Shown: piece after piece, positions 3,131-42,841 of the stretch
How the letters are laid out: each line of letters starts with the position of its first letter
Position numbering within the stretch: the stretch's first letter is position 1
From: Trypanosoma brucei
Lineage: Eukaryota
Direction: 5' to 3'
Length of the DNA stretch: 64,000 nucleotides
Assembly: GCA_000002445.1 (NCBI GenBank)
Contig: CP000066.1
Location: 1,376,001-1,440,000, forward strand
Notes under the pieces: model-generated
Databases searched by the model: none
What the model was told of the DNA's origin: nothing
What the model saw: the letters and a program-made list of their open reading frames with translations, nothing else
Program-made: the position numbers and the translations under genes

Positions 3131-3438
3131 ATGTTGGCAGCAACGGGGTTCCGTCTCCATACCTCAAGCTCATCAAAAATAACGAAACAGTCCAAGGCAG
3201 GGTATACCTCACGCAGCCCGGGAAGGACTTCGTCACGTGTATCACGGATTTAATCTTTTCTTCTTGAATACGCGTCTGGCTTGGAAATACCTCCCGGCAG
3301 CTCAATGCAGGAGTTGCCTTAACTCGGCGGGAGCGGTTACTTCTGGAAAGCGCAACTAAAGATCTTCTTCGACTCGTCCCCTTTAGTTTCTTCATCCTCG
3401 TTCCGTTTGCCGAGCTCCTGCTACCTGTTGCACTGAAG
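3131..3438 (+). pseudogene. LETM1: Disrupted 5' portion of the LETM1 homologue; the reading frame is split across three frames
   Basis: The only upstream ATG (3131, frame 2) sits just after a C7 run and encodes a presequence-like MLAATGFRLHTSSSSKITKQSK. Frame 3 (3183-3290) encodes REGLRHVYHGFNLFFLNTRLAWKYL, which aligns with the LETM1 [10 protein letters not shown] segment. Frame 1 then carries RQLNAGVALTRRERLLLESATKDLLRLVPFSFFILVPFAELLLPVALKMFPDLIPSTFE, which runs into the ORF at 3439. Removing one C from the CCC at 3293-3295 fuses frames 3 and 1 into KYLRQLNAGVALTRRER. Confidence 0.6.
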
Positions 3439-4575
3439 ATGTTTCCGGACCTGATTCCCTCAACATTTGAGAGTGAAAATCAGGGACGCAACAAGGCCTT
3501 TACGACTCTTATGGGAACGGTGCGTGCCCGACGCCGGTTGGCGGAATACCTGTCGTCCACTGCTTTTGTAAGCTTTACGAAAGAACAACAAGAAGTGGTG
3601 CGTTTCTCGGCAATGGGGGAGGCGGTGACCGCGAACCAGATACGTTTAATTGCACCTCATTTTGGTCGGGAAGGGCCGTTTAATGTCTACCAGATCCCCA
3701 ATGGTATTGCAGTAGCTCTGGCAAGGACTGTGGGAGTATACAAAGCATACCATGGTCTTGTTCCTAACAAAATTATGGCTCCTTACATGCGTCGTAAGAT
3801 CTTGCGGCAGTATCATAAAACCCGCGAGGATGACCGTATGCTACGTTTGGAGGGGCTTGACGATTTAACGGATGAGGAGCTGATAAAGGCGAACCTTGTT
3901 CGGGGTATGCGCTGGACAGAGGATGCGGAGACACTACGTATCCAACTTGAATGGTGGATATCTCTAGGACGTGACCCGGATGTCCCTTACAACACCCTTT
4001 TCTGGGTCAAGCCTACCCGATACAGCTTGAAAGAGTCAATGAAACGCTTGCCTGTGGAACAGCGCCGGCAGCTATTGGGCATTCAACATCTTCCCGAGAG
4101 CATTCGTGGAAATCTCGAGACACTCTGCGAAACGGTCGACACAGCTCCATCCATGAGTGAGGGTAAACCTGAGGACGCTGATCAGCTAGTGGAGAAACTT
4201 GCAGAGTTAAATGCTAAAACGAAAATCAGTGATAAGGATATTGCAATTCAGAATATTCAAATATCGCTGGGCGCTTATCTAACGGAACCAAATGTGAAAC
4301 GTATGTTTGAAGACATTCGCAAAAGTAAAACAGTGAACGAATATATAACAGTTACGGATGTCATAGATTTCATTGGAAGTGAAACCCATAATTCTTCCCA
4401 TGTAGTTTCTACTGTGTTTGATGCGTTCGATCAGAGTAGCGGAGTGAAGGCAATTACCGAATCTACACTCATATCTATCGGGGCCCGCTGCAGGGAGGCG
4501 TCAAAGGCACATGTCGACGTATCGTCTCAGTCTTCCCCAGGCAAACAGCCTTCAGAGGTGATTGCAAAAAATTAG
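3439..4575 (+). CDS. LETM1: LETM1-family mitochondrial inner-membrane protein; intact ORF portion covering the LETM1 domain onward
   Basis: MFPDLIPSTFE matches the LETM1 signature LFPNMLPSTFE. GMRWTEDAETLRIQLEWWISL aligns with human [22 protein letters not shown]. The upstream in-frame sequence continues the LETM1 TM/LRLVPF motif. Confidence 0.8.
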   Translation: MFPDLIPSTFESENQGRNKAFTTLMGTVRARRRLAEYLSSTAFVSFTKEQQEVVRFSAMGEAVTANQIRLIAPHFGREGPFNVYQIPNGIAVALARTVGVYKAYHGLVPNKIMAPYMRRKILRQYHKTREDDRMLRLEGLDDLTDEELIKANLVRGMRWTEDAETLRIQLEWWISLGRDPDVPYNTLFWVKPTRYSLKESMKRLPVEQRRQLLGIQHLPESIRGNLETLCETVDTAPSMSEGKPEDADQLVEKLAELNAKTKISDKDIAIQNIQISLGAYLTEPNVKRMFEDIRKSKTVNEYITVTDVIDFIGSETHNSSHVVSTVFDAFDQSSGVKAITESTLISIGARCREASKAHVDVSSQSSPGKQPSEVIAKN

Positions 4576-13071: not shown

Positions 13072-16000
13072 ATGTCTATGCACCGTGACTTACTTCGAAT
13101 AAGGCGGCAGACGTCGAACCTTGTCTCGTCACCCTCGCCTCCTTCCTCACGTGCCAGCCCTCGTGCAAGGGTGAGTTCGGCTAGAGGGGAACAACGACAA
13201 GGTGCTAGTGAAGCCGTGCATGTAGCAGTTCGTGTGCGGCCTTTGTCTGTCAATGAGGCGGGACAAGATGTCATCGTTTCGATGGATCCGTCAGCGAAGA
13301 AGATATTCGTGAGGAACCGAGGCGAGGAGCAACAAGAGTTTCCTTTTGAGTTGCCCGTATGGTCTTGCGGTGGAAATGCGCTAAACGGCTCGCCGCCGGT
13401 AAGTCAGGCAGCACTGTACAAAATGGTTGGGCAACCCCTTTTGGACCACGCATTTGAGGGCTTTAACAGCACACTTATGGTATACGGTAGCACAGGCAGC
13501 GGAAAAACTTACACAATGATGGGTGACATGGATGGCGGCTTTCTGGGTGAGGACGAGGATGTGCTCAACGATGGTGAGGAGGGCATTGTCCCACGCCTAT
13601 GCCGTGAGATGTTTCAGAAGATCAGAGATCGCTCGGTCAGCTTGTCTGACGGGGGAACGCTGACGTGGGATGTGCATGCCTCCTATGTGGAGGTTTATTG
13701 TGAGAAGATTAGCGATTTACTGAATAACGGTGCCCCTGTCACTATTCGTGAGGTGATCACGGATAACGAAGCGCACTTTGCGCTCAATGGTGCGCAGCGG
13801 GTTAACGTCCGTAATTCAGCGGAAATACTGCATCTCCTAAAAATTGGTAACAGACACAGGAAAACAGCCTCTACGGCCATGAATGAGCGCAGTAGTCGTA
13901 GTCATGCTATATTTGTTGTGGAGCTCACCGAGATGCTTGTAGTGAGGGGACCCGATGGTGAGTGTGTCGGTGCCCCAGGCAAGTTCCTTACCGTTCGCCT
14001 CGTTGATTTGGCGGGTAGTGAACGCGTTGGGGAAGCGGGCATGTCGGGACAGCTATTCAAGGAGGGTGTTGATATTAACTGCAGCCTCTTCACCCTGGGT
14101 ATGGTAATTGAGGCTCTTTCGGATCCTAGTCGACGCCATATGAGGCCACCATACCGTGACAGTACGTTGACGAAGATTCTAAAGGACGCATTTGGTGGAA
14201 ACAGCAAAACCACGATGATTTGTACCATTGCCCCCACGGAGGCCCAACGTGTGCACACGGTTCAAACACTTCAGTACGGGCTTAAGGCGCGACGAATTGT
14301 GAACAAGCCATGTGCGAAGAGAGGACCGTCAGCTAAAGAGCTTCGTAAGGCCAGTGAGGAGATGCTTAGTTTACGCCAGAAGCGCAGGGAAAGGCAACCA
14401 CAAGGCACTGGCTTGGAGGAATCGTATGCTGATCTAAGGCGTGCTGGCGACGGAGGCTTACATAATGGGGGTGCTTTACGTCATTCTGAGAGCTCGTCGG
14501 AAGGCAAGGAGACTTCTCTTGGCGGCTCCAATTTCGCTACAGATGAGGAGAGGGACCGTTACAGGAGGAAGATGGAAGAGCTGGAAGAAGAAATTGAGCG
14601 TGCGAGGGCGAGATACAGAGAGCAGGGGCGGGAGCTGCAAAACATAAGGAGAGAGAGTGCGGCTGAGGCTGAGGTGCGTTTAAGGGCGTTAGAAGCCCAA
14701 TTCAATGAGAAGGAAAATCATTTGAAGCGGAAAGGTCACGAAATTCAAAGGAAGCACCGTGATGCGGAGAGCCGATTGAAAGAGTTTAAAAATTTTTCGG
14801 AGGAGCGCATTTCTGACCTCCTTCGTGCACAGGGGGAGCTGAAAGATAAGTTACACGAGAAGGAACTTGCAGTCGGGCAGCGTGAGCGGGAGCTGCAGGA
14901 GGCCCAGAGTCGTGCCGAGGAGGAGGTTTCCCGTTTGCATCAGCGCATGATGCAGCAGGAACGAAAATGGCTTGAGCGCCATAAGGCTTTGGAAGCTGAA
15001 ATTTGCGCACAGGAAGACAAAATGAGGGACCGATTGCGTGATGCTATGGAGAGAATGCGTAATGTGGAAGAAGTTGCAGCACGTCGCGAGAGTGAGCTTC
15101 ACCGCAAGTGGTTAGATGCCCAGCAAGCGACCCGAGAGCTTCACCACAAGTTAGCTGAGAGCGAGGCAGAAAAGGCGCGACAAATATCTCAGGATCGCCG
15201 GGAAACAACCAAACGCGAGTCTGAACTTGCCCATAAATTGGAAGAAACTGAGCGCGGCCGAAAGGCCCTCGAACGTGAGGCGGTATCGCTAAAGACTGAA
15301 TTGGATGTGTTGAAGGAAGACTACGAGATGCTCGCTAAAAACAGCAGGGAGGGTTGTGATGCGGAGGCGCGGCTTCTCCCCCTTGAGGAGGAACTAAAGA
15401 GGCGAGAGGAGCGGCTGCAGCAACGCGAGGAACAGGCCCAGGCATCACTCGATGAAGTTCTAAAGAAGCAAGAGGAACTGGACCGCTTACACCTCGCAGT
15501 CATTGCCAAAGCAGATGCTATTGAGAAGGATGCGGTTGCCGCACTTCGGGAAAGGGAGAGTCGCCTTCAGAAGCGTGAAGATGAGCTTAAGAGCTTGGAG
15601 CATGAGTTGGAGGCACGCTCCGCGGTTTTGGATGTGGAGGCCAAGTATAAATCAATGGAGTACGATACGAAGGAGAGTGGGGCAGAGGCTTTAGCTTCCC
15701 GCGAACGCCGCGCCACAGAACTGCTTCAAGATGAACTTCAGGAAGCATTGCAACGTGTTCATCTCGACATGAAACAGAGGGAAGAGAAGTTTGATCGAAT
15801 GGAAGATGATATCAAGCGATGTCGTGAGCAGTTGGAGAATCTCTACAACGAGCGGGATGAGATGCTTAGGCGTGCATCCACATCCTCCGCTGGACGCAGC
15901 TGCGTGTTTGACTCGCCGCTTCCCGTTCCTCCACGGGGTTGCCGAAGATGCAGGTCGGGTACATCGTGGCCGTCCAACTGTAGCACGATGGGGACCGGGG

Positions 16001-17856
16001 AGGAAAATGATGCGTCTCTCAGTGGGCGGCAGTTCTCTCCTAACCAAAGCAGCGCGTCGCAGCAAGAACCGCGCTGCTCAGAGAACGGGGTTGAGGGGGG
16101 GAGGTCGTCTGAACTGCGTCCGATAAGTGCTCTTGCGGGGGAGTCGGTTTGCTTATGGCTCAAGAATATGCTGATCACTATGGAGGAAAGGAGCCGCGGC
16201 TTACTTGAGGATTTGTGCTATCATGAATACAGTGTCCTCGAGCGGATGACGTCCATCGGCTCTCTTTTTTCGTTTGGCGAAAATGCTCCCAACACGAGGA
16301 GCCCTGAGGTGGCCGCCAGGGTGGTTGACCGTACTTCGGTGTCTGCATGTAGTGACCATTTGCGCGGTGGTTTTCGACTTGGATCAATATGTGGTGTCGT
16401 GCCCCATGATGCTCCTTGCGTGCCTAGCCTCATGCATACTGAAGCGGACTGCGGTTTAAGAGATGCAGCATCGGAACATGAACAACTTGCCCAGCGTATA
16501 GTCGCGTTTGAACGGCTGCAGCATCAACGTGAGGTCGAGTTTCAGCAGAAGGATGAGCAAATCAGGGAATACCTAGTTGAAGTGGAGGCGATGGATCGTG
16601 AAAGGATGGCGATGTATCGCTTAAAGGAGGAGGAACACGAGGCTGCGGCTGCACAGTTGCAGATGGCAAAACGTGAGTTTGACCACCGTGTTAATTGCAT
16701 GCAGCAAACCCTTTTTTGCCGCGGCGCGCAGCAACACGCTGAGTCCATAGTCTTGCAGGAGGCCGCTGAACGTGAGAACATTTTTCGGCTATTCAACATT
16801 CAACTTCACAAGATTTTCGCCCATGAGAGAAACATGGCGCACCATACGAACTGTGTGGACTTGTTGCGCCAGAGAGAGGAGGTGATCACGCTTGAGGAGG
16901 CACAACTCCAGAAACGTATAAGTCAGCTAAAGGACGAGGAGGATGAGTGGAAAAGACGTCGTTCCACCGAGGAGACGCAGATACTCACGTACCTATTGGA
17001 GCTACAAAACGAAGATATGCTGCGCAAGCAAGCCATTGGGGAGAAGGGAAGCAGAGAGGACACCGCGAAATACTGCGAAGACGCCGAACTCGGGGTTGCG
17101 GGTTTGTGTAATGTGATGCATCGAGTAAGGGATCACACGCAGAAGTGTGAACTTGCGGTACAAAAGATGGAGAGTGAACTGGAACAGCAGGCAGATGCGG
17201 AGAAGGTCTTGGAGGAACGTGAAGCTGCTGTTGAACGGCGCCGTCGTGAACTTTCCACCAGCATGGAGTCTCGGGAGCGTTCCCTTTTGGACAGGGAAAT
17301 GGAACTGGAGGAGTTGACTCGTCGGCTTAAAGGTGACATACAAAAACGTGAACTTGCGATACAAAAGATGGAGAGTGAACTGGAACAGCAGGCAGATGCG
17401 GAGAAGGTCTTGGAGGAACGTGAAGCTGCTGTTGAACGGCGCCGTCGTGAACTTTCCACCAGCATGGAGTCTCGGGAGCGTTCCCTCTTGGAACAGGAAG
17501 TGGACCTACGGAAACTGTCCACTAAAGCAGGGGATAATTGTCGTAAACGTCCGGGTTCTCGTGTGGCACATAATCAGGAAGGTTCCTACTACGTTGACAT
17601 CAAGAAACTTCTGGAGGTCTGTGGATTTCAACTGCCGGGTGGAAAAGTTGAATTCCCGGACGGCGCTGACACACCGATTGAACTGACCGATAACCTTATC
17701 GACGTTATCGAATCACTACGACGCCAGCTAAAGGTATGGATTCAAAAGTATCGTGTGCTGAAGTCAGATGAGAAACTGGAGTGTGAACGCTGTTTGTGGC
17801 AGAATAACCGTGGTGCCACTGTGTGCCGATGCTGCGGCAATGCTCAACTTGTGTAA
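13072..17856 (+). CDS. Kinesin-like protein (1594 aa): N-terminal motor domain, very long coiled-coil stalk, C-terminal RanBP2-type zinc finger
   Basis: The motor begins VAVRVRPLS. P-loop GSTGSGKTYTM, switch I NERSSRSHAIF and switch II LVDLAGSERV are all present. Charged heptad-like sequence runs from about residue 430 to 1500. C-terminus CERCLWQNNRGATVCRCCG fits C-x2-C-x3-N-x6-C-x2-C (RanBP2 ZnF). Confidence 0.9.
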   Translation: MSMHRDLLRIRRQTSNLVSSPSPPSSRASPRARVSSARGEQRQGASEAVHVAVRVRPLSVNEAGQDVIVSMDPSAKKIFVRNRGEEQQEFPFELPVWSCGGNALNGSPPVSQAALYKMVGQPLLDHAFEGFNSTLMVYGSTGSGKTYTMMGDMDGGFLGEDEDVLNDGEEGIVPRLCREMFQKIRDRSVSLSDGGTLTWDVHASYVEVYCEKISDLLNNGAPVTIREVITDNEAHFALNGAQRVNVRNSAEILHLLKIGNRHRKTASTAMNERSSRSHAIFVVELTEMLVVRGPDGECVGAPGKFLTVRLVDLAGSERVGEAGMSGQLFKEGVDINCSLFTLGMVIEALSDPSRRHMRPPYRDSTLTKILKDAFGGNSKTTMICTIAPTEAQRVHTVQTLQYGLKARRIVNKPCAKRGPSAKELRKASEEMLSLRQKRRERQPQGTGLEESYADLRRAGDGGLHNGGALRHSESSSEGKETSLGGSNFATDEERDRYRRKMEELEEEIERARARYREQGRELQNIRRESAAEAEVRLRALEAQFNEKENHLKRKGHEIQRKHRDAESRLKEFKNFSEERISDLLRAQGELKDKLHEKELAVGQRERELQEAQSRAEEEVSRLHQRMMQQERKWLERHKALEAEICAQEDKMRDRLRDAMERMRNVEEVAARRESELHRKWLDAQQATRELHHKLAESEAEKARQISQDRRETTKRESELAHKLEETERGRKALEREAVSLKTELDVLKEDYEMLAKNSREGCDAEARLLPLEEELKRREERLQQREEQAQASLDEVLKKQEELDRLHLAVIAKADAIEKDAVAALRERESRLQKREDELKSLEHELEARSAVLDVEAKYKSMEYDTKESGAEALASRERRATELLQDELQEALQRVHLDMKQREEKFDRMEDDIKRCREQLENLYNERDEMLRRASTSSAGRSCVFDSPLPVPPRGCRRCRSGTSWPSNCSTMGTGEENDASLSGRQFSPNQSSASQQEPRCSENGVEGGRSSELRPISALAGESVCLWLKNMLITMEERSRGLLEDLCYHEYSVLERMTSIGSLFSFGENAPNTRSPEVAARVVDRTSVSACSDHLRGGFRLGSICGVVPHDAPCVPSLMHTEADCGLRDAASEHEQLAQRIVAFERLQHQREVEFQQKDEQIREYLVEVEAMDRERMAMYRLKEEEHEAAAAQLQMAKREFDHRVNCMQQTLFCRGAQQHAESIVLQEAAERENIFRLFNIQLHKIFAHERNMAHHTNCVDLLRQREEVITLEEAQLQKRISQLKDEEDEWKRRRSTEETQILTYLLELQNEDMLRKQAIGEKGSREDTAKYCEDAELGVAGLCNVMHRVRDHTQKCELAVQKMESELEQQADAEKVLEEREAAVERRRRELSTSMESRERSLLDREMELEELTRRLKGDIQKRELAIQKMESELEQQADAEKVLEEREAAVERRRRELSTSMESRERSLLEQEVDLRKLSTKAGDNCRKRPGSRVAHNQEGSYYVDIKKLLEVCGFQLPGGKVEFPDGADTPIELTDNLIDVIESLRRQLKVWIQKYRVLKSDEKLECERCLWQNNRGATVCRCCGNAQLV
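17147..17488 (+). repeat. Near-identical tandem duplication inside the kinesin stalk: two copies of about 141 nt with a 201-nt period
   Basis: 17147-17286 and 17348-17487 are almost base-for-base identical, with one visible difference (gcggta versus gcgata). They encode CELAVQKMESELEQQADAEKVLEEREAAVERRRRELSTSMESRERSLL twice, 67 aa apart. Confidence 0.9.
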
Positions 17857-19381: not shown

Positions 19382-22300
19382 ATGGGAACAATAGAAGGCA
19401 CAACTGTGGATTTTGATCCTAACCCACTTCAATGCCCCACTAAAACCATTCTTGTAGGGAATGAGGACGCTACTGCCGGTGTATTACCGCGCACAAGCCG
19501 GCACATTGACTTTACTGACGACGGTAAACTATTCGAGGGTCATTTTACACTCCAAGCTAGCAGTCTCAAATCAATCATTCAAGTTCTTGCAGACCAGCAA
19601 GCGGAGCAGCGGGTAATCATCAACGACCTACAGGATCAGGTGAATAATCTTCGGCAACAAACATCGAAAATGCGTAAGTCGGTACCCACACTGCAGCTTC
19701 CTGCCTCAGTAGGGGGGAGCGCTAAGTCATTTTCCAAGGAATATGAATCCCTTGAACAACGGGTAAAGTCGTTGGAAGGGTTCAGATCACTATGGGGGGC
19801 CCGCACTGAGGATGTGGATGGACTGATAAGTATATACGGGGATCCCGTTGTTACTCCTGACGAGTACACCACTTACATTATGAACCTCCAACCCTTTCGT
19901 GTGGTACGAAGTGAAGCGCGTCACTTTGTTACTTCTCAGGCGGAGCAGCAGAAACAGGCCGTTCGTACTGTGGGCGGTGAAAGAAATGAGAGAACACGCG
20001 GTGCGCGAAGTGCTCGCCTTGCTGATCCTGGGGATGCGGCTGATGATGGTTCGCGGACTCCGCGTGAAGGCGGGTCTCGCGCTCCTCGTGATGGGAGTCA
20101 GTCTGGTCGTGATGACTCACGTGGGTCTCGCCGGTTCCGCAAACGCCAGTCCGCTGATGATGACTCCAAGCCCGCTCGTGAAGATGATTCCGGTGCTCCT
20201 CGCGATGATAGCCAGTCTGGTCGTGATGGCTCGCGTGGACCTCGATCGGCTCGTAATCGGCAGGCTCATGATGCTGAGAGGAAGTCTTCCCGCGATGACG
20301 ACTCTCGTACAGTTCGTGATGACAATAATTTTGCTAACGATGACAATCGTTCTGGCCGTGATGAAACCCGAGGGCGTCGGCGGGTTCGCGAACCCCAGTC
20401 TAATGACGATGGCACCCGGTCTCCAATCGAAGAGTCCCATGCCAACCGCGACGACACCCGGCCTGGCCGTGACGATTCGCGCGGGTCCCGGCGGCAGCGC
20501 AACCGTCAGTCGCACGAGGACGACCTCAAGTCCTTCCATGAGGAGGATGCTCGAACCCACCGTGGCGGGCCCCGTGGGGCTCGCGACCGCGTCACTTATG
20601 GTGAGCATCTGGATTCTCGTGACGGGCTGCGGCAGGACAATATTGGGGATGGGGACACGATATCCGACTTGTCTAAGCGCCTCCAGTTGCTAGAGCAGAG
20701 GGTTCGGTCCGTACACGGCGGCCACAAAAATAATGCTCAGGGATCAGCATCTGAGCAACTGTCGCCAACTTCTGATGCCACCGGCGCAAAGGATTTACAG
20801 GCACGAGAGGACATTGAGGAGTTGAGTCGGTTCGTAGCAAAGCGCTTCAAGGAACTCGAGCGTTCTATTGCGAAGGTTCAAGGTGGAGACTTAAATGTCA
20901 CAGCACCCAAAGCCGGTATGGGTGCAAGGAAATCTGAAACCCCTCCCAAACGGAGGGAGAGATCCCCAACAGTAATGTCCAAAGGTCAGACCGGTGCTGG
21001 GGGCAGCGGGCCCGGTCCGAGTGGCGCCGTTGAAAGTGATCTTCTTCAGAAGGCCGGTAAACCGAGGGAGATTGCCCCTAGTTATACTCCGGTTGTGGAT
21101 GAGGTTGCCCGTGATGACGCTGCCGCTGCATTGGAGCAGGTGGAGCTACTCGAGAAGTATGTGGTGAGGAAGCTAAAGGAACTCACGCCGAGCCTAAGCA
21201 AAGGAGTATCAGACACACACATCTCATCACCCCCAATAGGTTCCACTTCCACTCAGCCTCCTGAACGGCCTTCCGGGGAGAGCCACGTCCCCCGCGGTGC
21301 TGACCGTTCCGCTTCCGAGAAGGTTGCAGTGGACCAGGCTGCTCGAGAAGATACCTCTCGCTTATTTGAACTTGTACATGACCTAGAGGATGATTGGGGG
21401 AAGCGGTGGGCTTCGTTGGAAGAGCGCCTTCGTATCATTGGGCGCGCAGCCGTGAACAAAGGCTCAGTTAACGCGGCCGCACCCGGTACGATCGACAGAA
21501 GAGCGCGGGAGGACGCTTCCATATCACTCATGAGAGTTCAGCAGTTGGAACGAGAAATTTCTAGCTTCCGAAGACTTCTCATGAAACGAAACGGGGCACC
21601 CATGGAAGTTGGATTGTTTGAAGGCCGTATGCAAAGCGGTGGCGCATCCAAGTTAGTAGTCGATGCGCGGGACCAGAAGGAACCAAATGACAATGGTTGC
21701 GCTGGTCTGGGGGCTGTCTTAGAGGGTGCAGATTCCCAGTCACGCGTCCTTGCCCTAGAAAAGGAGGTAGAATCACGGATGGAGGAAGTTAACCGAGCGC
21801 TTGCCACCCTACGTACAGCGCAAGTTGGTCAAGACTTTCCCGATCTTAGCTTTCTGGGAGATGACACAGGAACAAGAAAGTCTACAGCGCCGAGCCAAAT
21901 AGTAATCAGCACCCGGGAGATGGATCTTGCTGCGGCCGGAAATTTTCGGCGCCCGACCCCTGATACGAAGACGTACGCGGCAATGCTTGTCATGTCGTCT
22001 TACGACCCTGCACAACCGTTTCATGGCAGTTACTCAAACTACGATCAGGGGAACCCTATCGTGCTTCGCCCGCCTCAGATGGAGACGTTTGCAACACCAC
22101 TAGTCAGGCGTGAGCCGCAGGATAATCTTACACCCCGGACACGCGGCGAAGCCGGGGTAGCAGTTGGTACACCTCAACATGAAAAATCACCCGTGAACAA
22201 GGCAGCGACTCAGAGCGGTGAGGCGGGCCTATCACCTTCAGGAACGGGTAGCTGTCCCATTAGGATGTCTGGACCAGCGCCGCACCCACCCGACGGGTCT

Positions 22301-22573
22301 GCAATCTGCCCCGTTGCTCCGCACAAACAGAGTGTGATGCAGCACTTGGGTGATATGAGGTCTGTATCTTCTAGAGTGCGCGGGAGGGAGTCCACTAGGA
22401 TGGGGTCGCAGAACATCTTAGGACGAGAAACTGTGCTAGGGACGAAGGGTAGGGCAGGATTAGGTCTTGTTGCAGAATCAAGTGCTTTGGGGCACCGGAC
22501 GCCGTGTGTTGTTCCTAATTGCGCGTGGTGCGCAGTTCAAAATGTAAAGGCAACAGTAAAAACGGCACGCTGA
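19382..22573 (+). CDS. Hypothetical protein (1063 aa) with an R/D/S-rich degenerate repeat region and coiled-coil segments
   Basis: Long + strand ORF. Residues about 200-400 consist of four degenerate units of roughly 40 aa (SRAPRDGSQSGRDDSRGSRRFRKRQSADDDSK, then GAPRDDSQSGRDGSRGPRSARNRQAHDAERKS, and so on). No enzymatic motif recognised. Confidence 0.6.
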   Translation: MGTIEGTTVDFDPNPLQCPTKTILVGNEDATAGVLPRTSRHIDFTDDGKLFEGHFTLQASSLKSIIQVLADQQAEQRVIINDLQDQVNNLRQQTSKMRKSVPTLQLPASVGGSAKSFSKEYESLEQRVKSLEGFRSLWGARTEDVDGLISIYGDPVVTPDEYTTYIMNLQPFRVVRSEARHFVTSQAEQQKQAVRTVGGERNERTRGARSARLADPGDAADDGSRTPREGGSRAPRDGSQSGRDDSRGSRRFRKRQSADDDSKPAREDDSGAPRDDSQSGRDGSRGPRSARNRQAHDAERKSSRDDDSRTVRDDNNFANDDNRSGRDETRGRRRVREPQSNDDGTRSPIEESHANRDDTRPGRDDSRGSRRQRNRQSHEDDLKSFHEEDARTHRGGPRGARDRVTYGEHLDSRDGLRQDNIGDGDTISDLSKRLQLLEQRVRSVHGGHKNNAQGSASEQLSPTSDATGAKDLQAREDIEELSRFVAKRFKELERSIAKVQGGDLNVTAPKAGMGARKSETPPKRRERSPTVMSKGQTGAGGSGPGPSGAVESDLLQKAGKPREIAPSYTPVVDEVARDDAAAALEQVELLEKYVVRKLKELTPSLSKGVSDTHISSPPIGSTSTQPPERPSGESHVPRGADRSASEKVAVDQAAREDTSRLFELVHDLEDDWGKRWASLEERLRIIGRAAVNKGSVNAAAPGTIDRRAREDASISLMRVQQLEREISSFRRLLMKRNGAPMEVGLFEGRMQSGGASKLVVDARDQKEPNDNGCAGLGAVLEGADSQSRVLALEKEVESRMEEVNRALATLRTAQVGQDFPDLSFLGDDTGTRKSTAPSQIVISTREMDLAAAGNFRRPTPDTKTYAAMLVMSSYDPAQPFHGSYSNYDQGNPIVLRPPQMETFATPLVRREPQDNLTPRTRGEAGVAVGTPQHEKSPVNKAATQSGEAGLSPSGTGSCPIRMSGPAPHPPDGSAICPVAPHKQSVMQHLGDMRSVSSRVRGRESTRMGSQNILGRETVLGTKGRAGLGLVAESSALGHRTPCVVPNCAWCAVQNVKATVKTAR
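19980..20590 (+). repeat. Degenerate 120-nt tandem repeats encoding Arg/Asp/Ser-rich units
   Basis: Recurring gctcctcg(t/c)gatgg/at-agccagtctggtcgtgatg(a/g)ctc(a/g)cgtgg blocks, for example at about 20084-20130 and 20204-20250. This region explains the spurious alternative-frame and antisense ORFs at 19899-20693 and 20117-20608. Confidence 0.7.
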
Positions 22574-23309
22574 CCAAACAGCGCGTGACCAGTTTCAGTT
22601 ATTCCATTTATATGCGATCTATGTGCTTAGGAAGTGTGTATGCGTATGAAGTAACGGTTTGTTCGCTGCTCCCCTCTTCCGAAAATAAGGGACATGTTTC
22701 TTTTTACGTGTGCTCCTTTATGTATCTTTTACGCTGTAACGAATGTTAAGAGCCTTTTTTTTAAATATCCCGCGTAGTTTTTTTTTTTTTTTGGGGGGGG
22801 CAATGTGGGGCTAAACCCAAAGAAAAAGGAGGGAAGGGATTCAGACGGCCAATGCTATCCAATTGTTGAATTCTTTTTACGCCTCAGATGCTTGCGGAGA
22901 ATCGGGAGAGGGAAAATGGAGAAGGGATGTAAACAGATTGAGCGGAGGAAGAACATGACTTCGACAGGATCTCACTCTTGATGTTGCATTCCTCATATTT
23001 TTTTTGCTCTGCATGTTGAAATTACCGTCCGTTTTTTTTTTTCGATGCCCATTGTTTGGGGCCCGTTAATTCTTACTGTGCGCCGAGCGTATTTTCTTCA
23101 CCCAAACGTCTTCTTTTGTCTCTTCCCTTTTCTCTTTTTGTTTTATCGTCCATTCGTACTTACCACATCCACAGCCATCGTGTTAGAACGGTACAGTTTT
23201 TCGATAACCATACGTACAGTGAGAGACGCTTAGAGCAACTATCAATACAGTAGGGGAATAAAACTCCAGTAAAACAAGACCGCCCACTCACCCACCCACT
23301 AAGGAGATA

Positions 23310-24134
23310 ATGACAGTAATGGACGTGGATGCCACCGCCATCCCGGATATGATCGAGGCGCAGCTGACTCTTAGCTACAGCCGCCTCACACAACTAATTC
23401 GTCTGATTGTTGACCAGGGCAACGGCCATGATATGGACATTGGGAAGATTATGAATCGTCTAGATGCGCTTGCAAAGGAAAACGCAGAGCTTCGGAAGCG
23501 TGTGGACGAGCTCACAGAGACGACGATGCGCTGTGGAGGCGTCAACGAGGAGGTAGCAGTGTTGAAACGGGAAGTCGCCATTGTGCAGGAGCTCTGTACC
23601 GAGAATACGAAGAGGCTCACCAGCAGTGAAGGCATAAATGAGAGACGATTCGTTAAGTTGGAGGAAGCGGTAAGTACAGTATCGGACACAGGGACAACTG
23701 AAACCCAACGCTTGGACGGATGTATCACCGAGCTTCGATCGGAGAACTTGGAGATGAAGAAGGATGTTGGGTGCTTGAACGACTTCGTAGCCCTTTGGGA
23801 CGGTCATGTAGAGAAGATTCGAGCGCTGACCACACGTGACTCAGAGGGTAATTTGCAGCACGCAGCACATGAGAGGGCGAGATACCTTCACTCCCTTCCC
23901 CCATTCACTAAACTGTTTGAGGAGTTGGAGGTGATGCGGCAGCTGAATCGACATCAGACTACGGACTCACTCGCCGCAAAGGGTGTCGTAGGTGTGTTGA
24001 GGCGCTCAAGCGTCGGCGATATTGCGGGGAATACGGATCCCGCACCCAAATCACCATGCGTGGCGACCCCCGCTGCCGAAACAGAGTCGTGGAGAGAATC
24101 AATGCCACCATCGCTCAGTTGGACAAACGGCTAA
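23310..24134 (+). CDS. Coiled-coil hypothetical protein, 5' part; frame ends shortly after a C5 run
   Basis: Heptad-like sequence (LDALAKENAELRKRVDELTET, VAVLKREVAIVQELCTENTKRL). The frame terminates 60 nt after the C5 run at 24067-24071. Confidence 0.6.
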   Translation: MTVMDVDATAIPDMIEAQLTLSYSRLTQLIRLIVDQGNGHDMDIGKIMNRLDALAKENAELRKRVDELTETTMRCGGVNEEVAVLKREVAIVQELCTENTKRLTSSEGINERRFVKLEEAVSTVSDTGTTETQRLDGCITELRSENLEMKKDVGCLNDFVALWDGHVEKIRALTTRDSEGNLQHAAHERARYLHSLPPFTKLFEELEVMRQLNRHQTTDSLAAKGVVGVLRRSSVGDIAGNTDPAPKSPCVATPAAETESWRESMPPSLSWTNG

Positions 24135-24961
24135 AGGCCCTGGAGACTGAGCGAGCGGAACGAGGTAATGAGGCGCATGGCGCGGCTGCATACAGTTCAC
24201 AGTTCTTCATGGAAAAGGACTCACGCAACGCTGTGCCTCCATTGGTGGAGGGTTTCATTCCCTCGAGGGCTGTTCTAACCGACATCGAAGATCGACTGTG
24301 TTACCTTGAAGCTGCACTCAAAACCGGTAATACCTTGCCATCCTCCCGACGTGTACCACGGTTGCCTGAGAGGGATCTTCCACCAATCGTGGGAGCACCA
24401 CACCCCCCCGGTGCAGCACCATTGCAGGGTGAAGCTGGGGGAGAACCTTCAACTTCCACAAGCAAAGAACGTCAGGCATCCGAGCGGGCTGCAAGCAACG
24501 GCACATCGAATGGGATACCTCCACCTATTCAAGGACATCGAGGGTGCGACGTCAGCAATCCCTCTGCAGGAAACTCATCAAGTGCTGGCGTAAGTCAAGG
24601 ACGGCACGCGGTGGATGACGGCAGTGTGTTGCGACAACGCGTCGACAAACTTGAAGAGAGGGCGTCTGTGCTGGAGAAAAAGAAAGCTGATCGGCGGGAG
24701 GTGCAGCAACTGGAGGAATTTGTAGAGGAATTAGCCAGGCGTTCGTTGGGGCCACTCCAAACTGGTCCAGTGCCTTCCAACATGCAAGAAAATGCGCAAT
24801 TGGGTTACTCAGATGACGTTCTCGGGATGGGGAGAGGCTCGCGAAAAGTGGGCACTGCTCCACTCATGCGCTCCGTATTTGTTGTTGGCATGGGTACACA
24901 GTTGAACGATTCGACGGGCAGCAAAACTTCCGCCACAGTCGCCAACCCCAGGCAACTTTAG
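24056..24961 (+). CDS. Coiled-coil hypothetical protein, 3' part; probably the continuation of the 23310 gene after a single-base frame change
   Basis: This frame is open from 23999. It starts immediately with coiled-coil sequence RVVERINATIAQLDKRLKALETERAER and carries further coiled coil (LRQRVDKLEERASVLEKKKADRREVQQLEEFVEEL). It overlaps the upstream ORF by 79 nt in frame +2. Confidence 0.6.
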   Translation: MRGDPRCRNRVVERINATIAQLDKRLKALETERAERGNEAHGAAAYSSQFFMEKDSRNAVPPLVEGFIPSRAVLTDIEDRLCYLEAALKTGNTLPSSRRVPRLPERDLPPIVGAPHPPGAAPLQGEAGGEPSTSTSKERQASERAASNGTSNGIPPPIQGHRGCDVSNPSAGNSSSAGVSQGRHAVDDGSVLRQRVDKLEERASVLEKKKADRREVQQLEEFVEELARRSLGPLQTGPVPSNMQENAQLGYSDDVLGMGRGSRKVGTAPLMRSVFVVGMGTQLNDSTGSKTSATVANPRQL

Positions 24962-26255
24962 CTCTATGGGGAGCCGCACAATAGTATGTACGATGTTTTT
25001 TTTTTTTTCTCTCTTCTTCTGCACCCGTTTGTCTGGTACGGAGGAAGTAGGTATGTATTTTTCGTTTCATTCTCTTCTGTGGGTTTGCCGCCTTGTCATG
25101 TCTTTCGCATAACAATAAACCAAGAAAGAAAAGTTAACAAATACACGAGACTAGAAGAGTAAACAAACCAAAAAAAATAAATAATAGTTGACGCTTCCCC
25201 CATGGTATTGTTACTAAAAGACGTAGGGATGAGAGAAGAGTGAGTGGGTATTGGGAAAGGGGGAACACTTGGAGGAAGAAAAAAATAAAAACATGAGAAA
25301 TAAAAACGGGTTCGATCTAGTGTTAAATGAGTGAGGTTGTTTACTTGTTGTTTGTAAGCGTAGTGATAGCACTTTAGGACAAAGATTGCGCGTGCGTATC
25401 TGTATGTGAAGGGTTAGTGGGGTACAGTGAAGTGTTAATGGTTGTGGAAAAAAATGTATCACATCCATGTATATATGTGTAAGCGAATGCATTTGCCTCT
25501 ATTTGTCAGGTGTGGAAAGTGCCGCGTTCCGAAACAAGGCATTATATTTGTTCTTCCTCACACACCTTTATGTTGTTTTTTTTTCTATTGTTGTCAATCG
25601 TTGAAGCGACCGACCACATAAGTATGGGGAGGAACCGCGACTGCTTTGTTGAGAAGCCTAAGTTCTTGTGTTTCAGTGGGAAGAGGAAAATATATAGAGG
25701 AGATGCGACAGCATCAGGGTCGTCTCGTATGAACGGCAAAAGAGGATGGGGACAGCCCTTTGCTCTTTAAATTTTAATCCATATCTTGAACTAGGGCGGC
25801 AGTGGAACGAGATAAGCCGGAGGCCTCGACCTAAATAGTTTCGTTCTGCTGGTCGTCTGCATTTCACCGTTTCCCCCCTTTCGGAAGCAGCTTATTTGCC
25901 CTTACGTCAACAACCTTACTTTTGCTTGGTGCAATTGACAGCCGTGTTTACCGCCACACCGCTGCTTTGTGATGTACTTTTACTTACCCCACTTTGACAC
26001 TGTTATTGCCTTGTGCGGGGGCACTTTGTTGAGGTCGTGTGGGTCGGCGTAACTTTTCTTACCCTGTTTTAATTCGTTACAACATATAGTGCCATTCACT
26101 GGTTAAATCGTTTCCTCTTGCCGCTTGTATGGGGATAAGAAATAAAATTTATAAACTATTCCATTTTTTATTGCATTCCTTCAGATTGCTTATCGGGATA
26201 AGGGAACACAAACAACTTGCACACAATAGGGGGGGGGTGCTTTAACGAGGACATC

Positions 26256-28021: not shown

Positions 28022-29722
28022 ATGTTCATTTATGTCCGCTGCTTACTCCGCATGGCCACATCAGGTGAACTAAAGTCACACTTATCGCGTCTTCGGGCTG
28101 CAGGTCGAGCTGGGGAGAGCCAAATTCGCCAGCGACGCGCTTTGCTTCGGGGGACGAGGCAGCGGCGACATCAGCAGGTCAGAGATGCCGGTTTGTCTTC
28201 TCGTCGTTCCACCTCCTCCACTGGGGCGGATTGTTCCAGTAAACTCCGTGACATGCTTCCGCGGAATGACTTGCTGGAGAGCGCCATTGCCTTGACCATA
28301 AGTGAAAACCGTGATGCGCGTACCGAGCTTGAATTCATGCGTCATTTTATGGTTGGTTCGCTCTTGTCGCTTGCGTCACCCGTTGGTATTTGGGATCCGT
28401 ACGACGTACAACCACAGGTGTTTGCGTTAGATAAGTACATTGCACTTCCTGTGTTTACATCGGTCGACTACCTGCGCCTGTTCTGCAGGCGCTTTCGATT
28501 TACTGTACGCGACCCCAGCGGAGTGCTGTGGGCTGATGGTCCCGCCGAAGCGGCAGAGGAGGAGCAGAACGGTGGGGCCGCCTGCACTTTGCCTCTTCCC
28601 GATGTCATGGCGAGCGAATGGTGGGCTCGGCACGTTCGGCGCCAGTCGTCAAATACGCTGTCTGGTGCAACCGAGATGTGTGCGACTCGGAGAGGGCCGT
28701 TATTGGCAGCGGCAGCTGTTCCTGTTGCCGAGGAGATTACGGCTGTTAACGAGCACAACCATCGTACTTGTTGTATGGGAGCTGATGAACTTTTTAACTA
28801 TTTGGAGTCCCAACCGGTGGAGACGGACGGGAAGGCACAAAATATGGGAAAGCGGCGCAAGAAAGGGAAAAAAGTATGTAGGGTGGGTATGCGCGGAAGA
28901 AAGGGAACGTTGGAGAGAAGGGATGTTCCAGGGGGCGAAGAAGCCACAGGAAACCGTTGCCGTGAGAACGAGGAGGCGATTGCAGCGTTTTGGGCGAAGG
29001 TGCGCAGCACGGCCCCCTTTCAGATCAAGCAGGCAACACCACTTCCTACATTTGGTCCTTTGCTCCACTCCTTCTTTGTTGGCTACTTTGCTGACACGGA
29101 AACTCTATTGCATAATGCCTCTATTGTTCCTGAGAAGGTGGACATTGTCCTTAACCCAGCGTCTCCCATTGAGTTTGTACTTGCGCGGGAGGCAACGGAC
29201 CGTGTACTGCAGAAGGATCAGCTTCTGCTGCTGGCTTATCGCCGGGTGGAACGGGAACTCTGCGGAGAGTTCCACCGTTTTTTCTGCCTTTTCGCACCAG
29301 AAGTGTTGTGGGCCCGGAGTGCCTGCGTCCCGTCCCCCGTTCCCGGGACTGATAAGGAAGTGGGGTATGAGGTGGTCATTTTAGTTCAAAGCGAGGACCC
29401 TGAATTTACGCTTTCATCGCTCCGCGCTGCGAAGGCGCGTTGTCTACTTATGGGCCATGCCGACTTGCATATATTGCCCTGGGCTGCCGCTGCCCCACAC
29501 GTTCAGGAGGCCTCCGTGGTATTTTACGAGCGCGCCGCATGCTCGAAGGGCGCCGGCTCCAGTAACCGCGGAGAGCTTGGAGTCTTTGAGCAACGGGGCC
29601 CTGTACAAACAATCAACGTGGCTCGACCAGCCGACAACTTCTTCCATGACCCAAGTGCCGCTTACACGGAAAGTCATGCCGTATTCACAGAGGAGTTGAA
29701 GGTGAGACGACGTATGCTCTAG
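28022..29722 (+). CDS. Hypothetical protein (about 555-566 aa); start uncertain between 28022 and 28052 (MATSGEL)
   Basis: Long GC-rich + strand ORF with no recognised motif. The overlapping alternative-frame ORF at 28440-29384 has arginine/proline-rich junk composition and is rejected. Confidence 0.5.
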   Translation: MFIYVRCLLRMATSGELKSHLSRLRAAGRAGESQIRQRRALLRGTRQRRHQQVRDAGLSSRRSTSSTGADCSSKLRDMLPRNDLLESAIALTISENRDARTELEFMRHFMVGSLLSLASPVGIWDPYDVQPQVFALDKYIALPVFTSVDYLRLFCRRFRFTVRDPSGVLWADGPAEAAEEEQNGGAACTLPLPDVMASEWWARHVRRQSSNTLSGATEMCATRRGPLLAAAAVPVAEEITAVNEHNHRTCCMGADELFNYLESQPVETDGKAQNMGKRRKKGKKVCRVGMRGRKGTLERRDVPGGEEATGNRCRENEEAIAAFWAKVRSTAPFQIKQATPLPTFGPLLHSFFVGYFADTETLLHNASIVPEKVDIVLNPASPIEFVLAREATDRVLQKDQLLLLAYRRVERELCGEFHRFFCLFAPEVLWARSACVPSPVPGTDKEVGYEVVILVQSEDPEFTLSSLRAAKARCLLMGHADLHILPWAAAAPHVQEASVVFYERAACSKGAGSSNRGELGVFEQRGPVQTINVARPADNFFHDPSAAYTESHAVFTEELKVRRRML

Positions 29723-41716: not shown

Positions 41717-42841
41717 ATGACTGCGCGCCCATCTGTGAGTGTGTACTCTGCGTCGGAGGATAAAGTGGTTGGCACCTGTTCGCTACCCGCTGTGTTCACT
41801 GCGCCCATCCGTCATGATGTTGTGCAGTTTGTGCACACGAACATGGCAAAGAACTCCCGCCAACCTTATGCGGTGAACCGTCTTTCCGGCATGAAGCACT
41901 CCGCGGAGTCTTGGGGTACTGGCCGCGCTGTCGCCCGTATTCCCCGTATTCACGGTGGTGGTACGAGTATGTCGGGTGCTGGTGCATTCGGTAACATGTG
42001 CCGGGGTGGTCGTATGTTCGCACCCACAAAGATCTTCCGCCGCTGGCACCGTAAGATTAATCTGCACCAGAAACGTTTCGCTGTGGTGTCCGCCCTCGCC
42101 GCCTCGTCACTGCCAGCACTTGTAATGTCACGAGGACACAAGATCGAGAATGTCGCTGAGGTGCCGCTCGTGGTGGAAGATGGTGTACGAGCCTATGAAA
42201 AGACTAAAGAGGCAATGACATTCCTTAAGACTGTTGGTGCCATCGACGACGTGAACCGTGTGAATGACTCCCGTCAGATACGTGCTGGCCGTGGTAAGAT
42301 GCGTAACCGTCGCTACGTTGCGCGACGGGGCCCGATGCTGGTGATGCCAGACAACAAGGGCACACGTGCCTTCCGCAACATCTTTGGGCTCGACCTTGCG
42401 AATGTAAACTCACTGAACCTTCTGCACCTTGCACCTGGTGGTCACGTCGGGCGCTTCATCATCTGGACGAAGAGTGCATTCGAGAAGCTGGACAAAATCT
42501 TCGGTACCTTCACAGAACCCTCCACCGTTAAGTCGGGCTTCATGTTGCCCGCACCGATGTTGACGAGTACTGATGTGACGCGCATCATGCAGTCCGAAGA
42601 GGTGCGTCGCGTTCTGAAACCCAAGAAACTGCAACCCAAGAGGCCAAGCCGCTATAGGCAGCCGACGAACGGTATTCGCAACCGTCGCCTGCGCCTGCGT
42701 TTGAACCCGTTCCAGAAGAAGGAGAAGGCAATGGCTAAGGGCATGCAGAACAAGAAGAACCGTGAGGCTCGCCACGCCGCCAAGGTCGTTCGGTTGGCGA
42801 AAGCGAGGAAAAATGTCGCGAAAGCACTCAAGAAGAAGTAA
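41717..42841 (+). CDS. RPL4: 60S ribosomal protein L4 (uL4)
   Basis: Highly conserved uL4 sequence throughout: PIRHDVVQFVHTNMAKNSRQPYAV, ESWGTGRAVARIPRIHGGGTSMSGAGAFGNMCRGGRMFAPTK, and a Lys-rich C-terminal tail. Confidence 0.95.
   Translation: MTARPSVSVYSASEDKVVGTCSLPAVFTAPIRHDVVQFVHTNMAKNSRQPYAVNRLSGMKHSAESWGTGRAVARIPRIHGGGTSMSGAGAFGNMCRGGRMFAPTKIFRRWHRKINLHQKRFAVVSALAASSLPALVMSRGHKIENVAEVPLVVEDGVRAYEKTKEAMTFLKTVGAIDDVNRVNDSRQIRAGRGKMRNRRYVARRGPMLVMPDNKGTRAFRNIFGLDLANVNSLNLLHLAPGGHVGRFIIWTKSAFEKLDKIFGTFTEPSTVKSGFMLPAPMLTSTDVTRIMQSEEVRRVLKPKKLQPKRPSRYRQPTNGIRNRRLRLRLNPFQKKEKAMAKGMQNKKNREARHAAKVVRLAKARKNVAKALKKK

Follow-up and report, generated by a model that had tools for sequence, protein, structure and literature searches.

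The two overlapping reading frames at 23310-24961 of the DNA analysed here are, on the evidence of colinear protein similarity, a single conserved kinetoplastid gene predicted to encode a 550-aa, largely helical (coiled-coil-type) uncharacterised protein, and the frame of that gene is broken by one missing T at 24090. Among the sequences compared, the break is private to this one. From the pattern of indels around it, we lean toward regarding the missing base as an error of the reference or of a sequenced clone, more likely than a biological mutation of the strain.

Two reading frames and their intact orthologues

The stretch analysed (the window; 64,000 nucleotides of contig CP000066.1) belongs to chromosome 3 of Trypanosoma brucei brucei TREU927 and extends from Tb927.3.4900 to about Tb927.3.5150. 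Neighboring ORFs are exact matches to the TREU927 proteins XP_844085, 087, 088, 089, 090, 092, and 103, and the gene numbering was anchored on three loci with published identifiers:

3439-4575: Tb927.3.4920, LETM1
13072-17856: Tb927.3.4960, kinesin-like
41717-42841: Tb927.3.5050, ribosomal protein L4

The broken gene lies between Tb927.3.4970 and Tb927.3.4990, and by gene numbering we infer that it is Tb927.3.4980. In the supplementary table of Cosentino, Brink and Siegel (2021; PMC8445201), the row for Tb927.3.4970 (1063 aa) is followed immediately by that for Tb927.3.4990 (339 aa), and likewise Tb427_030053100 by Tb427_030053300. The accessions of the flanking genes in TREU927, AAZ10529 and AAZ10530, are consecutive with nothing between them and.4980 is missing from the protein set, in contrast to T. 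b. gambiense, where the intact CBH10216 is placed between CBH10215 and CBH10217. Frameshifted genes and pseudogenes are customarily left without a protein in reference annotation. Since the TREU927 record holds no protein for the locus, the frameshift has evidently already been treated as a pseudogene; it is evidently an ordinary frameshift that the annotators recognized. No indexed paper mentions Tb927.3.4980, Tb427_030053200, TEOVI_000784000, DPX39_030049600, or the guessed Tbg972 identifier.

The frame-0 ORF is present at 23310-24134 on the plus strand (274 aa), exactly as an earlier note on this DNA had described it. The second ORF, in frame 2 (+2 relative to the first), terminates at 24961 and has its first ATG at 24056, giving 301 aa. 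The earlier note took frame 2 to be open from 23999, but the stop at 23998 belongs to frame 1; the last stop in frame 2 is at 23918, so that frame has been open since 23921 and the two frames overlap over 23921-24134. One base added at any position of the overlap joins both ORFs into 550 codons. By itself, an overlap between long ORFs says little here, because long off-frame ORFs also occur inside neighboring genes (264 aa at 19899-20693 and 314 aa at 28440-29384, within the annotated Tb927.3.4970 and Tb927.3.5000), and off-frame open runs within genes of the window reach 317 codons. What makes the split significant is homology, with E = 0 at 100% coverage to single-ORF proteins.

The fused conceptual protein is 98% identical, at 100% coverage, to a 550-aa protein of T. 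b. equiperdum (P0001), which shares its cluster with the proteins of T. b. gambiense DAL972 and T. equiperdum OVI and with three products of Logan assembly. All three of these trypanosomes have a 550-aa protein. Orthologues of 496-623 aa, likewise encoded by one ORF, are present in T. congolense, T. grayi, T. cruzi, T. theileri, T. rangeli, T. conorhini, Leishmania, Leptomonas, and Phytomonas. When 1.84 billion representatives were searched with a profile, 21 clusters came out at E <= 1e-30, and the 21 best-scoring proteins (444-812 aa) nearly all aligned from their first residues. Similarity is full-length and colinear, and both halves in the window together cover 100% of the orthologues. Comparison with orthologues, which the earlier note had proposed as a check, thus came down on the side of one gene, the fused protein matching single ORFs across trypanosomatids with none annotated as two genes. 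A protein ending in ...SLSWTNG, which that note named as evidence against fusion, was absent among ~15 billion sequences, as was a separate C-terminal protein, and no record matched the 274-aa, 271-aa (Met4 start), or 301-aa product exactly; the absence of truncated products carries little weight, as only one project of T. brucei runs (ERR79291xx) appeared in the protein collection, and its haplotype is not that of TREU927.

The three intact orthologues closest to the window are those of T. b. gambiense DAL972 (XP_011772506.1 / CBH10216.1), T. equiperdum OVI (TEOVI_000784000, XP_067079444.1), and T. b. equiperdum (DPX39_030049600, RHW73859.1). They share with it a DNA identity of >99% and the same position between a 1025/1063-aa hypothetical protein and an ADH-type oxidoreductase, and they differ in having TT and a continuous 550-codon ORF where the window shows one T and a gene divided between two ORFs. 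Synteny is conserved, with the same flanking genes in T. b. gambiense and T. b. equiperdum.

The motifs of the family are present in the window, at the N terminus IPDMIEAQLTLSYSRL...QGNGHD.DI and at the C terminus LEE...KKADR and T.AT. In the orthologue alignment, invariant columns cluster at residues 1-61, the invariant N-terminal positions being P12, D13, I15-Y23, and Q36-H40. Among the named homology matches, the protein is confined to trypanosomatids. Pfam gave no family, only a sub-threshold match to the CALCOCO1 coiled coil, and a sequence search of the PDB gave no relative. An AlphaFold model (pTM 0.25), too poor to support a fold search, consists of long helices plus disorder, with helices at 41-162, 197-237, 255-289, and 437-479 and disordered linkers between them. 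Both halves are helical in this model, in keeping with the coiled-coil character that the earlier note had read in each, and the frame break is located within the predicted helix 255-289.

Position of the frame break

We aligned the DNA of the gene in the window with that of T. b. gambiense (L001), T. b. equiperdum (L002), and four Logan contigs (L003-L006, from ERR7929159, 161, 157, and 163, respectively). Over the 1.65 kb of coding region, the sole indel relative to the six other sequences is a T missing at 24090, where the window reads TCG-TGG and all six others TCGTTGG; in longer context, GAGTCG-TGGAGAGA in the window stands against GAGTCGTTGGAGAGA in 6/6 others. The missing T is from a TT doublet, 19 nt downstream of a run of five C (the C5 run, 24067-24071) that is identical in 7/7 sequences. 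The features of the locus can be laid out as follows:

23214-26072, plus strand: span covered by single Logan contigs from four sequencing runs, with both halves inside
23310-24089, plus strand: codons 1-260 in frame 0 (MTVMD...PAAETES), equal to the intact T. b. gambiense, T. equiperdum, and Logan proteins to residue 260, known SNPs aside; contains the most conserved N-terminal motif of the family, IPDMIEAQLTLSYSRL..QGNGHD
23921-24089, plus strand: frame 2 open by chance upstream of the break, including ATG 24056 (MRGDPRCRNRVV); non-coding in frame 2, as the intact proteins use frame 0 there
24067-24071, plus strand: C5 run, not the frameshift site; C5 in the window and in L001-L006
24090-24090, plus strand: frame break, T in the window against TT in 6/6 related sequences; codon 261 is TTG (Leu)
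24090-24134, plus strand: out-of-frame tail of the frame-0 ORF, WRESMPPSLSWTNG plus stop, delimited by the DNA alignment
24092-24961, plus strand: codons 262-550 and stop in frame 2 (ERINATIAQLDKRLK...ATVANPRQL*), colinear with the intact orthologues to the C terminus; one difference only from the relatives, a synonymous G/A at 24751

Restoring the T at 24090 yields a protein of 550 aa that is 100% identical to that of T. equiperdum OVI (P0016 / XP_067079444.1). The intact proteins read ...KSPCVATPAAETES-LERINATIAQLDK... across the junction; they track frame 0 of the window past the C5 run and switch to frame 2 only beyond AAETES. In T. congolense (45% identity), EKEALEKLESS lies opposite ETESLERINAT, which gives independent support for the frame-0 reading of AAETES. 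With one T of the doublet missing, frame 0 passes into 14 junk codons and a stop, and the remainder of the gene stands in frame 2; the C5 run has no role in the break. The two frames differ in their tryptic peptides at the junction, SPCVATPAAETESLER belonging to the intact frame and SPCVATPAAETESWR to the frameshifted one.

These results uphold the core of the earlier note, a single gene of ~550 codons with a one-base frame change and single-ORF orthologues, and relocate the change. The C5 run at which that note had placed it is present, but it is C5 in the six relatives too. Frame 0 had been said to turn into non-protein sequence right after the run, yet AAETES is genuine, occurring in every intact relative and in similar form in T. 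congolense (EKEALE), and past the run only WRESMPPSLSWTNG* lies out of frame. Nor does frame 2 become real at the run, as had been thought: RCRNRVV is out of frame, and true sequence restarts at (L)ERINATIAQ. The fusion proposed from these premises, CVATP-RCRNRVV-ERINAT, therefore differs at residues 255-261 from the true protein, CVATP-AAETESL-ERINAT.

The four Logan contigs, all from one project, are transcript-sized; 3/4 start at 23214-23222, and their ends fall at 25875-26072. The span 23214-26072 would correspond to roughly one mRNA-sized unit holding both halves; no spliced leader or poly(A) was seen in the Logan contigs spanning it. The window positions of note in these contigs are 23813, 24013 (T/C), and 24059 (C/T); the SNPs at the last two occur in every one of the four possible combinations, which suggests that the runs come from different strains or that a heterozygous strain was phased at random. 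One contig begins with 30 nt (L005:1-30) that reverse-complement window 23952-23981 and continues from 24000, a fold-back assembly artifact and the source of a spurious 321-aa 'protein' (P0019) in the cluster.

Reference error or allele of TREU927

In a survey of indels, ~19 kb of the window was compared with other genomes. Each of the coding indels (4/4) is found in the window alone, lies outside repetitive sequence, and amounts to a miscount of a single or double base:

24090: TT to T, in the split gene
3204: TT to T, in LETM1
3210: AA to A, in LETM1
3290: C to CC, in LETM1

Intergenic indels in the same ~19 kb fall nearly all in long homopolymer runs or a microsatellite, with a couple in short G/A runs. 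It is on this basis, private coding indels at non-repetitive sites, three of them breaking the reportedly essential LETM1, against intergenic indels mostly at homopolymers and microsatellites, that we lean to an error. Such an error would have entered the Sanger, BAC-based reference as a doublet miscount or as a mutation of the clone; the real TREU927 gene would then be intact and its product would be the 550-aa protein. The gene is intact in six independent sequences; in the window it carries no second lesion, and its coding region differs from the relatives by 0-2 SNPs. Between 23214 and 24750, the window equals the Logan contig L006 save for the missing T. Wrongly split genes have been published for the TREU927 assembly, for instance, Tb927.2.5860 and Tb927.2.5870, which are one gene in Lister 427 (Tb427_020030800; PMC8445201). 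That case is like ours in that one gene elsewhere appears as two adjacent reading frames in TREU927, but there the halves are annotated as proteins and the assembly error was shown, whereas here neither half has a protein record and the error at 24090 is what the indel pattern points to. Against an error stand the finishing of the reference BAC by BAC and the fact that annotators evidently left the locus non-coding and made no correction.

The missing T may alternatively be a genuine TREU927 mutation, either heterozygous, with the BAC having caught a null allele while its counterpart is intact, or homozygous, in which case the locus would be a very young unitary pseudogene. We consider this quite possible, though not the reading we would choose. 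The window haplotype is divergent just downstream, with ~12 differences at 24751-25748 (3' UTR and intergenic) that are private to the window relative to all six other sequences; these make a private natural indel on this haplotype plausible. Taken with the match to L006 up to 24750, they suggest a breakpoint, of haplotype or recombination, in the interval from about 24142 to 24751. That the reference annotation gives the locus no protein also fits a real mutation, and transcribed, allele-specific frameshifting indels that escape NMD have been documented in T. brucei Lister 427 (PMC8445201). Those variants likewise involve a single-base frameshifting indel or premature termination in an otherwise intact gene of the core chromosomes, but they were phased with reads, affect one allele, and were followed by RNA-seq and Ribo-seq, whereas the change at 24090 is known from assembled sequence. 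A unitary pseudogene might be expected to carry several disabling mutations or to show relaxed constraint, and the locus carries a single 1-nt deletion. Its halves are otherwise intact, the sequence upstream of 24751 is the haplotype of another sample, and the gene has been kept as a single ORF across trypanosomatids, all of which argue against a real mutation. Natural indels between these strains are otherwise almost entirely in homopolymers and microsatellites, and the three similar private, non-repetitive indels in LETM1 are hard to accept as real.

Far less probable is a split that is functional, whether through programmed -1 ribosomal frameshifting or as two separate genes or proteins. 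The overlap does contain one in-frame heptamer resembling X_XXY_YYZ, A_AAG_GGT at 23978, but with YYY = GGG it is not of the canonical form, and the shift that homology requires is 112 nt farther downstream; shifting at the heptamer would swap out ~36 conserved residues. At 24087-24092, where a slippery sequence would be needed, there is none, and no X_XXY_YYZ heptamer. The two-frame layout is not conserved in relatives, the closest of which (>99% DNA identity) have an uninterrupted ORF, and the frame-2 ATG at 24056 sits in conserved frame-0 coding sequence. Two separate genes are excluded by homology and by the absence of such products from the record of ~15 billion sequences. U-insertion RNA editing, which acts on mitochondrial transcripts, was rejected as a rescue; the LETM1 indels involve A and C too.

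Weakest of all is a one-C change in the length of the C5 run (24067-24071), by slippage or homopolymer sequencing error, which we practically discount: the homopolymer does lie inside the overlap and one added C does give a 550-codon ORF, but the run shows no length difference from the intact copies, these read AAETES in frame 0 after it, and an extra C there is ruled out by the DNA alignment and by the seven mismatched residues of the resulting protein. The locus resembles frameshifts of the homopolymer-length type in that one base has changed near a homopolymer, and differs from them in that the indel is in the TT doublet and not in C5. Even jointly, all explanations other than an error or a genuine allele have very little chance of being right.

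Neighboring loci and consequences for the reference

For LETM1 (Tb927.3.4920; window 3131-4575), both the annotation and the open frame are limited to 378 aa, beginning at 3439. Residues 1-25, 28-54, and 55-481 of the 481-aa T. equiperdum protein correspond to window frames 2, 3, and 1, respectively. Three single-base indels private to the window within ~85 nt (a missing T at ~3204, a missing A at ~3210, and an extra C at ~3290) thus displace the start codon and residues 1-54 from the frame of the remainder, and a conserved transmembrane helix lies upstream of the first in-frame ATG. In T. b. equiperdum, the DNA is continuous at the indel region, and the annotation repeats the 378-aa model. 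To go by the title of a 2013 paper, LETM1 is reportedly essential for mitochondrial potassium homeostasis. The 378-aa model is probably a reference error combined with a mis-annotation propagated from it, and it leaves the reference without the N terminus and the transmembrane helix, both of which are part of a 481-aa ORF in other genomes.

Three further genes in the window differ in recorded length or copy number between genomes. The repeat-rich hypothetical protein Tb927.3.4970 (19382-22573) is polymorphic in length: TREU927 and T. equiperdum OVI have 1063 aa, whereas T. b. gambiense, T. b. equiperdum, and Lister 427 have 1025 aa and Logan assemblies either 1017 or 1025 aa. The kinesin Tb927.3.4960 (13072-17856) is 1594 aa long in the window, a length shared by T. 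b. gambiense and T. equiperdum OVI; the annotation of T. b. equiperdum gives it only 855 aa, and Tb427v10 gives 1795 aa (size ratio 1.126; PMC8445201 supplement); its lengths reflect either true variation or further breaks of assembly or annotation. Ribosomal protein L4 (Tb927.3.5050, 41717-42841) is present in one copy of 374 aa in the window; the T. b. gambiense L4 in the cluster has 328 aa, and the gambiense genome paper describes the locus in T. b. gambiense as a 2-copy tandem unit.

The biological weight of the missing T is small, and its interest is chiefly one of annotation hygiene. TREU927 is the reference for most functional genomics of T. brucei, including RNAi screens, TrypTag, and proteomics databases, and because the locus has no protein there, Tb927.3.4980 is invisible to the resources built on it, despite its conservation across trypanosomatids and its intact copies in T. 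b. gambiense, T. equiperdum, and T. b. equiperdum. Should reads bear out errors in the reference, the models of LETM1 and Tb927.3.4980 would both merit correction. It is unlikely that the deletion is both real and homozygous, which would make TREU927 a natural null or leave it with only the conserved N-terminal fragment of 260 residues; were this nonetheless true, a fly-transmissible strain would be able to complete its whole life cycle without the full-length protein.
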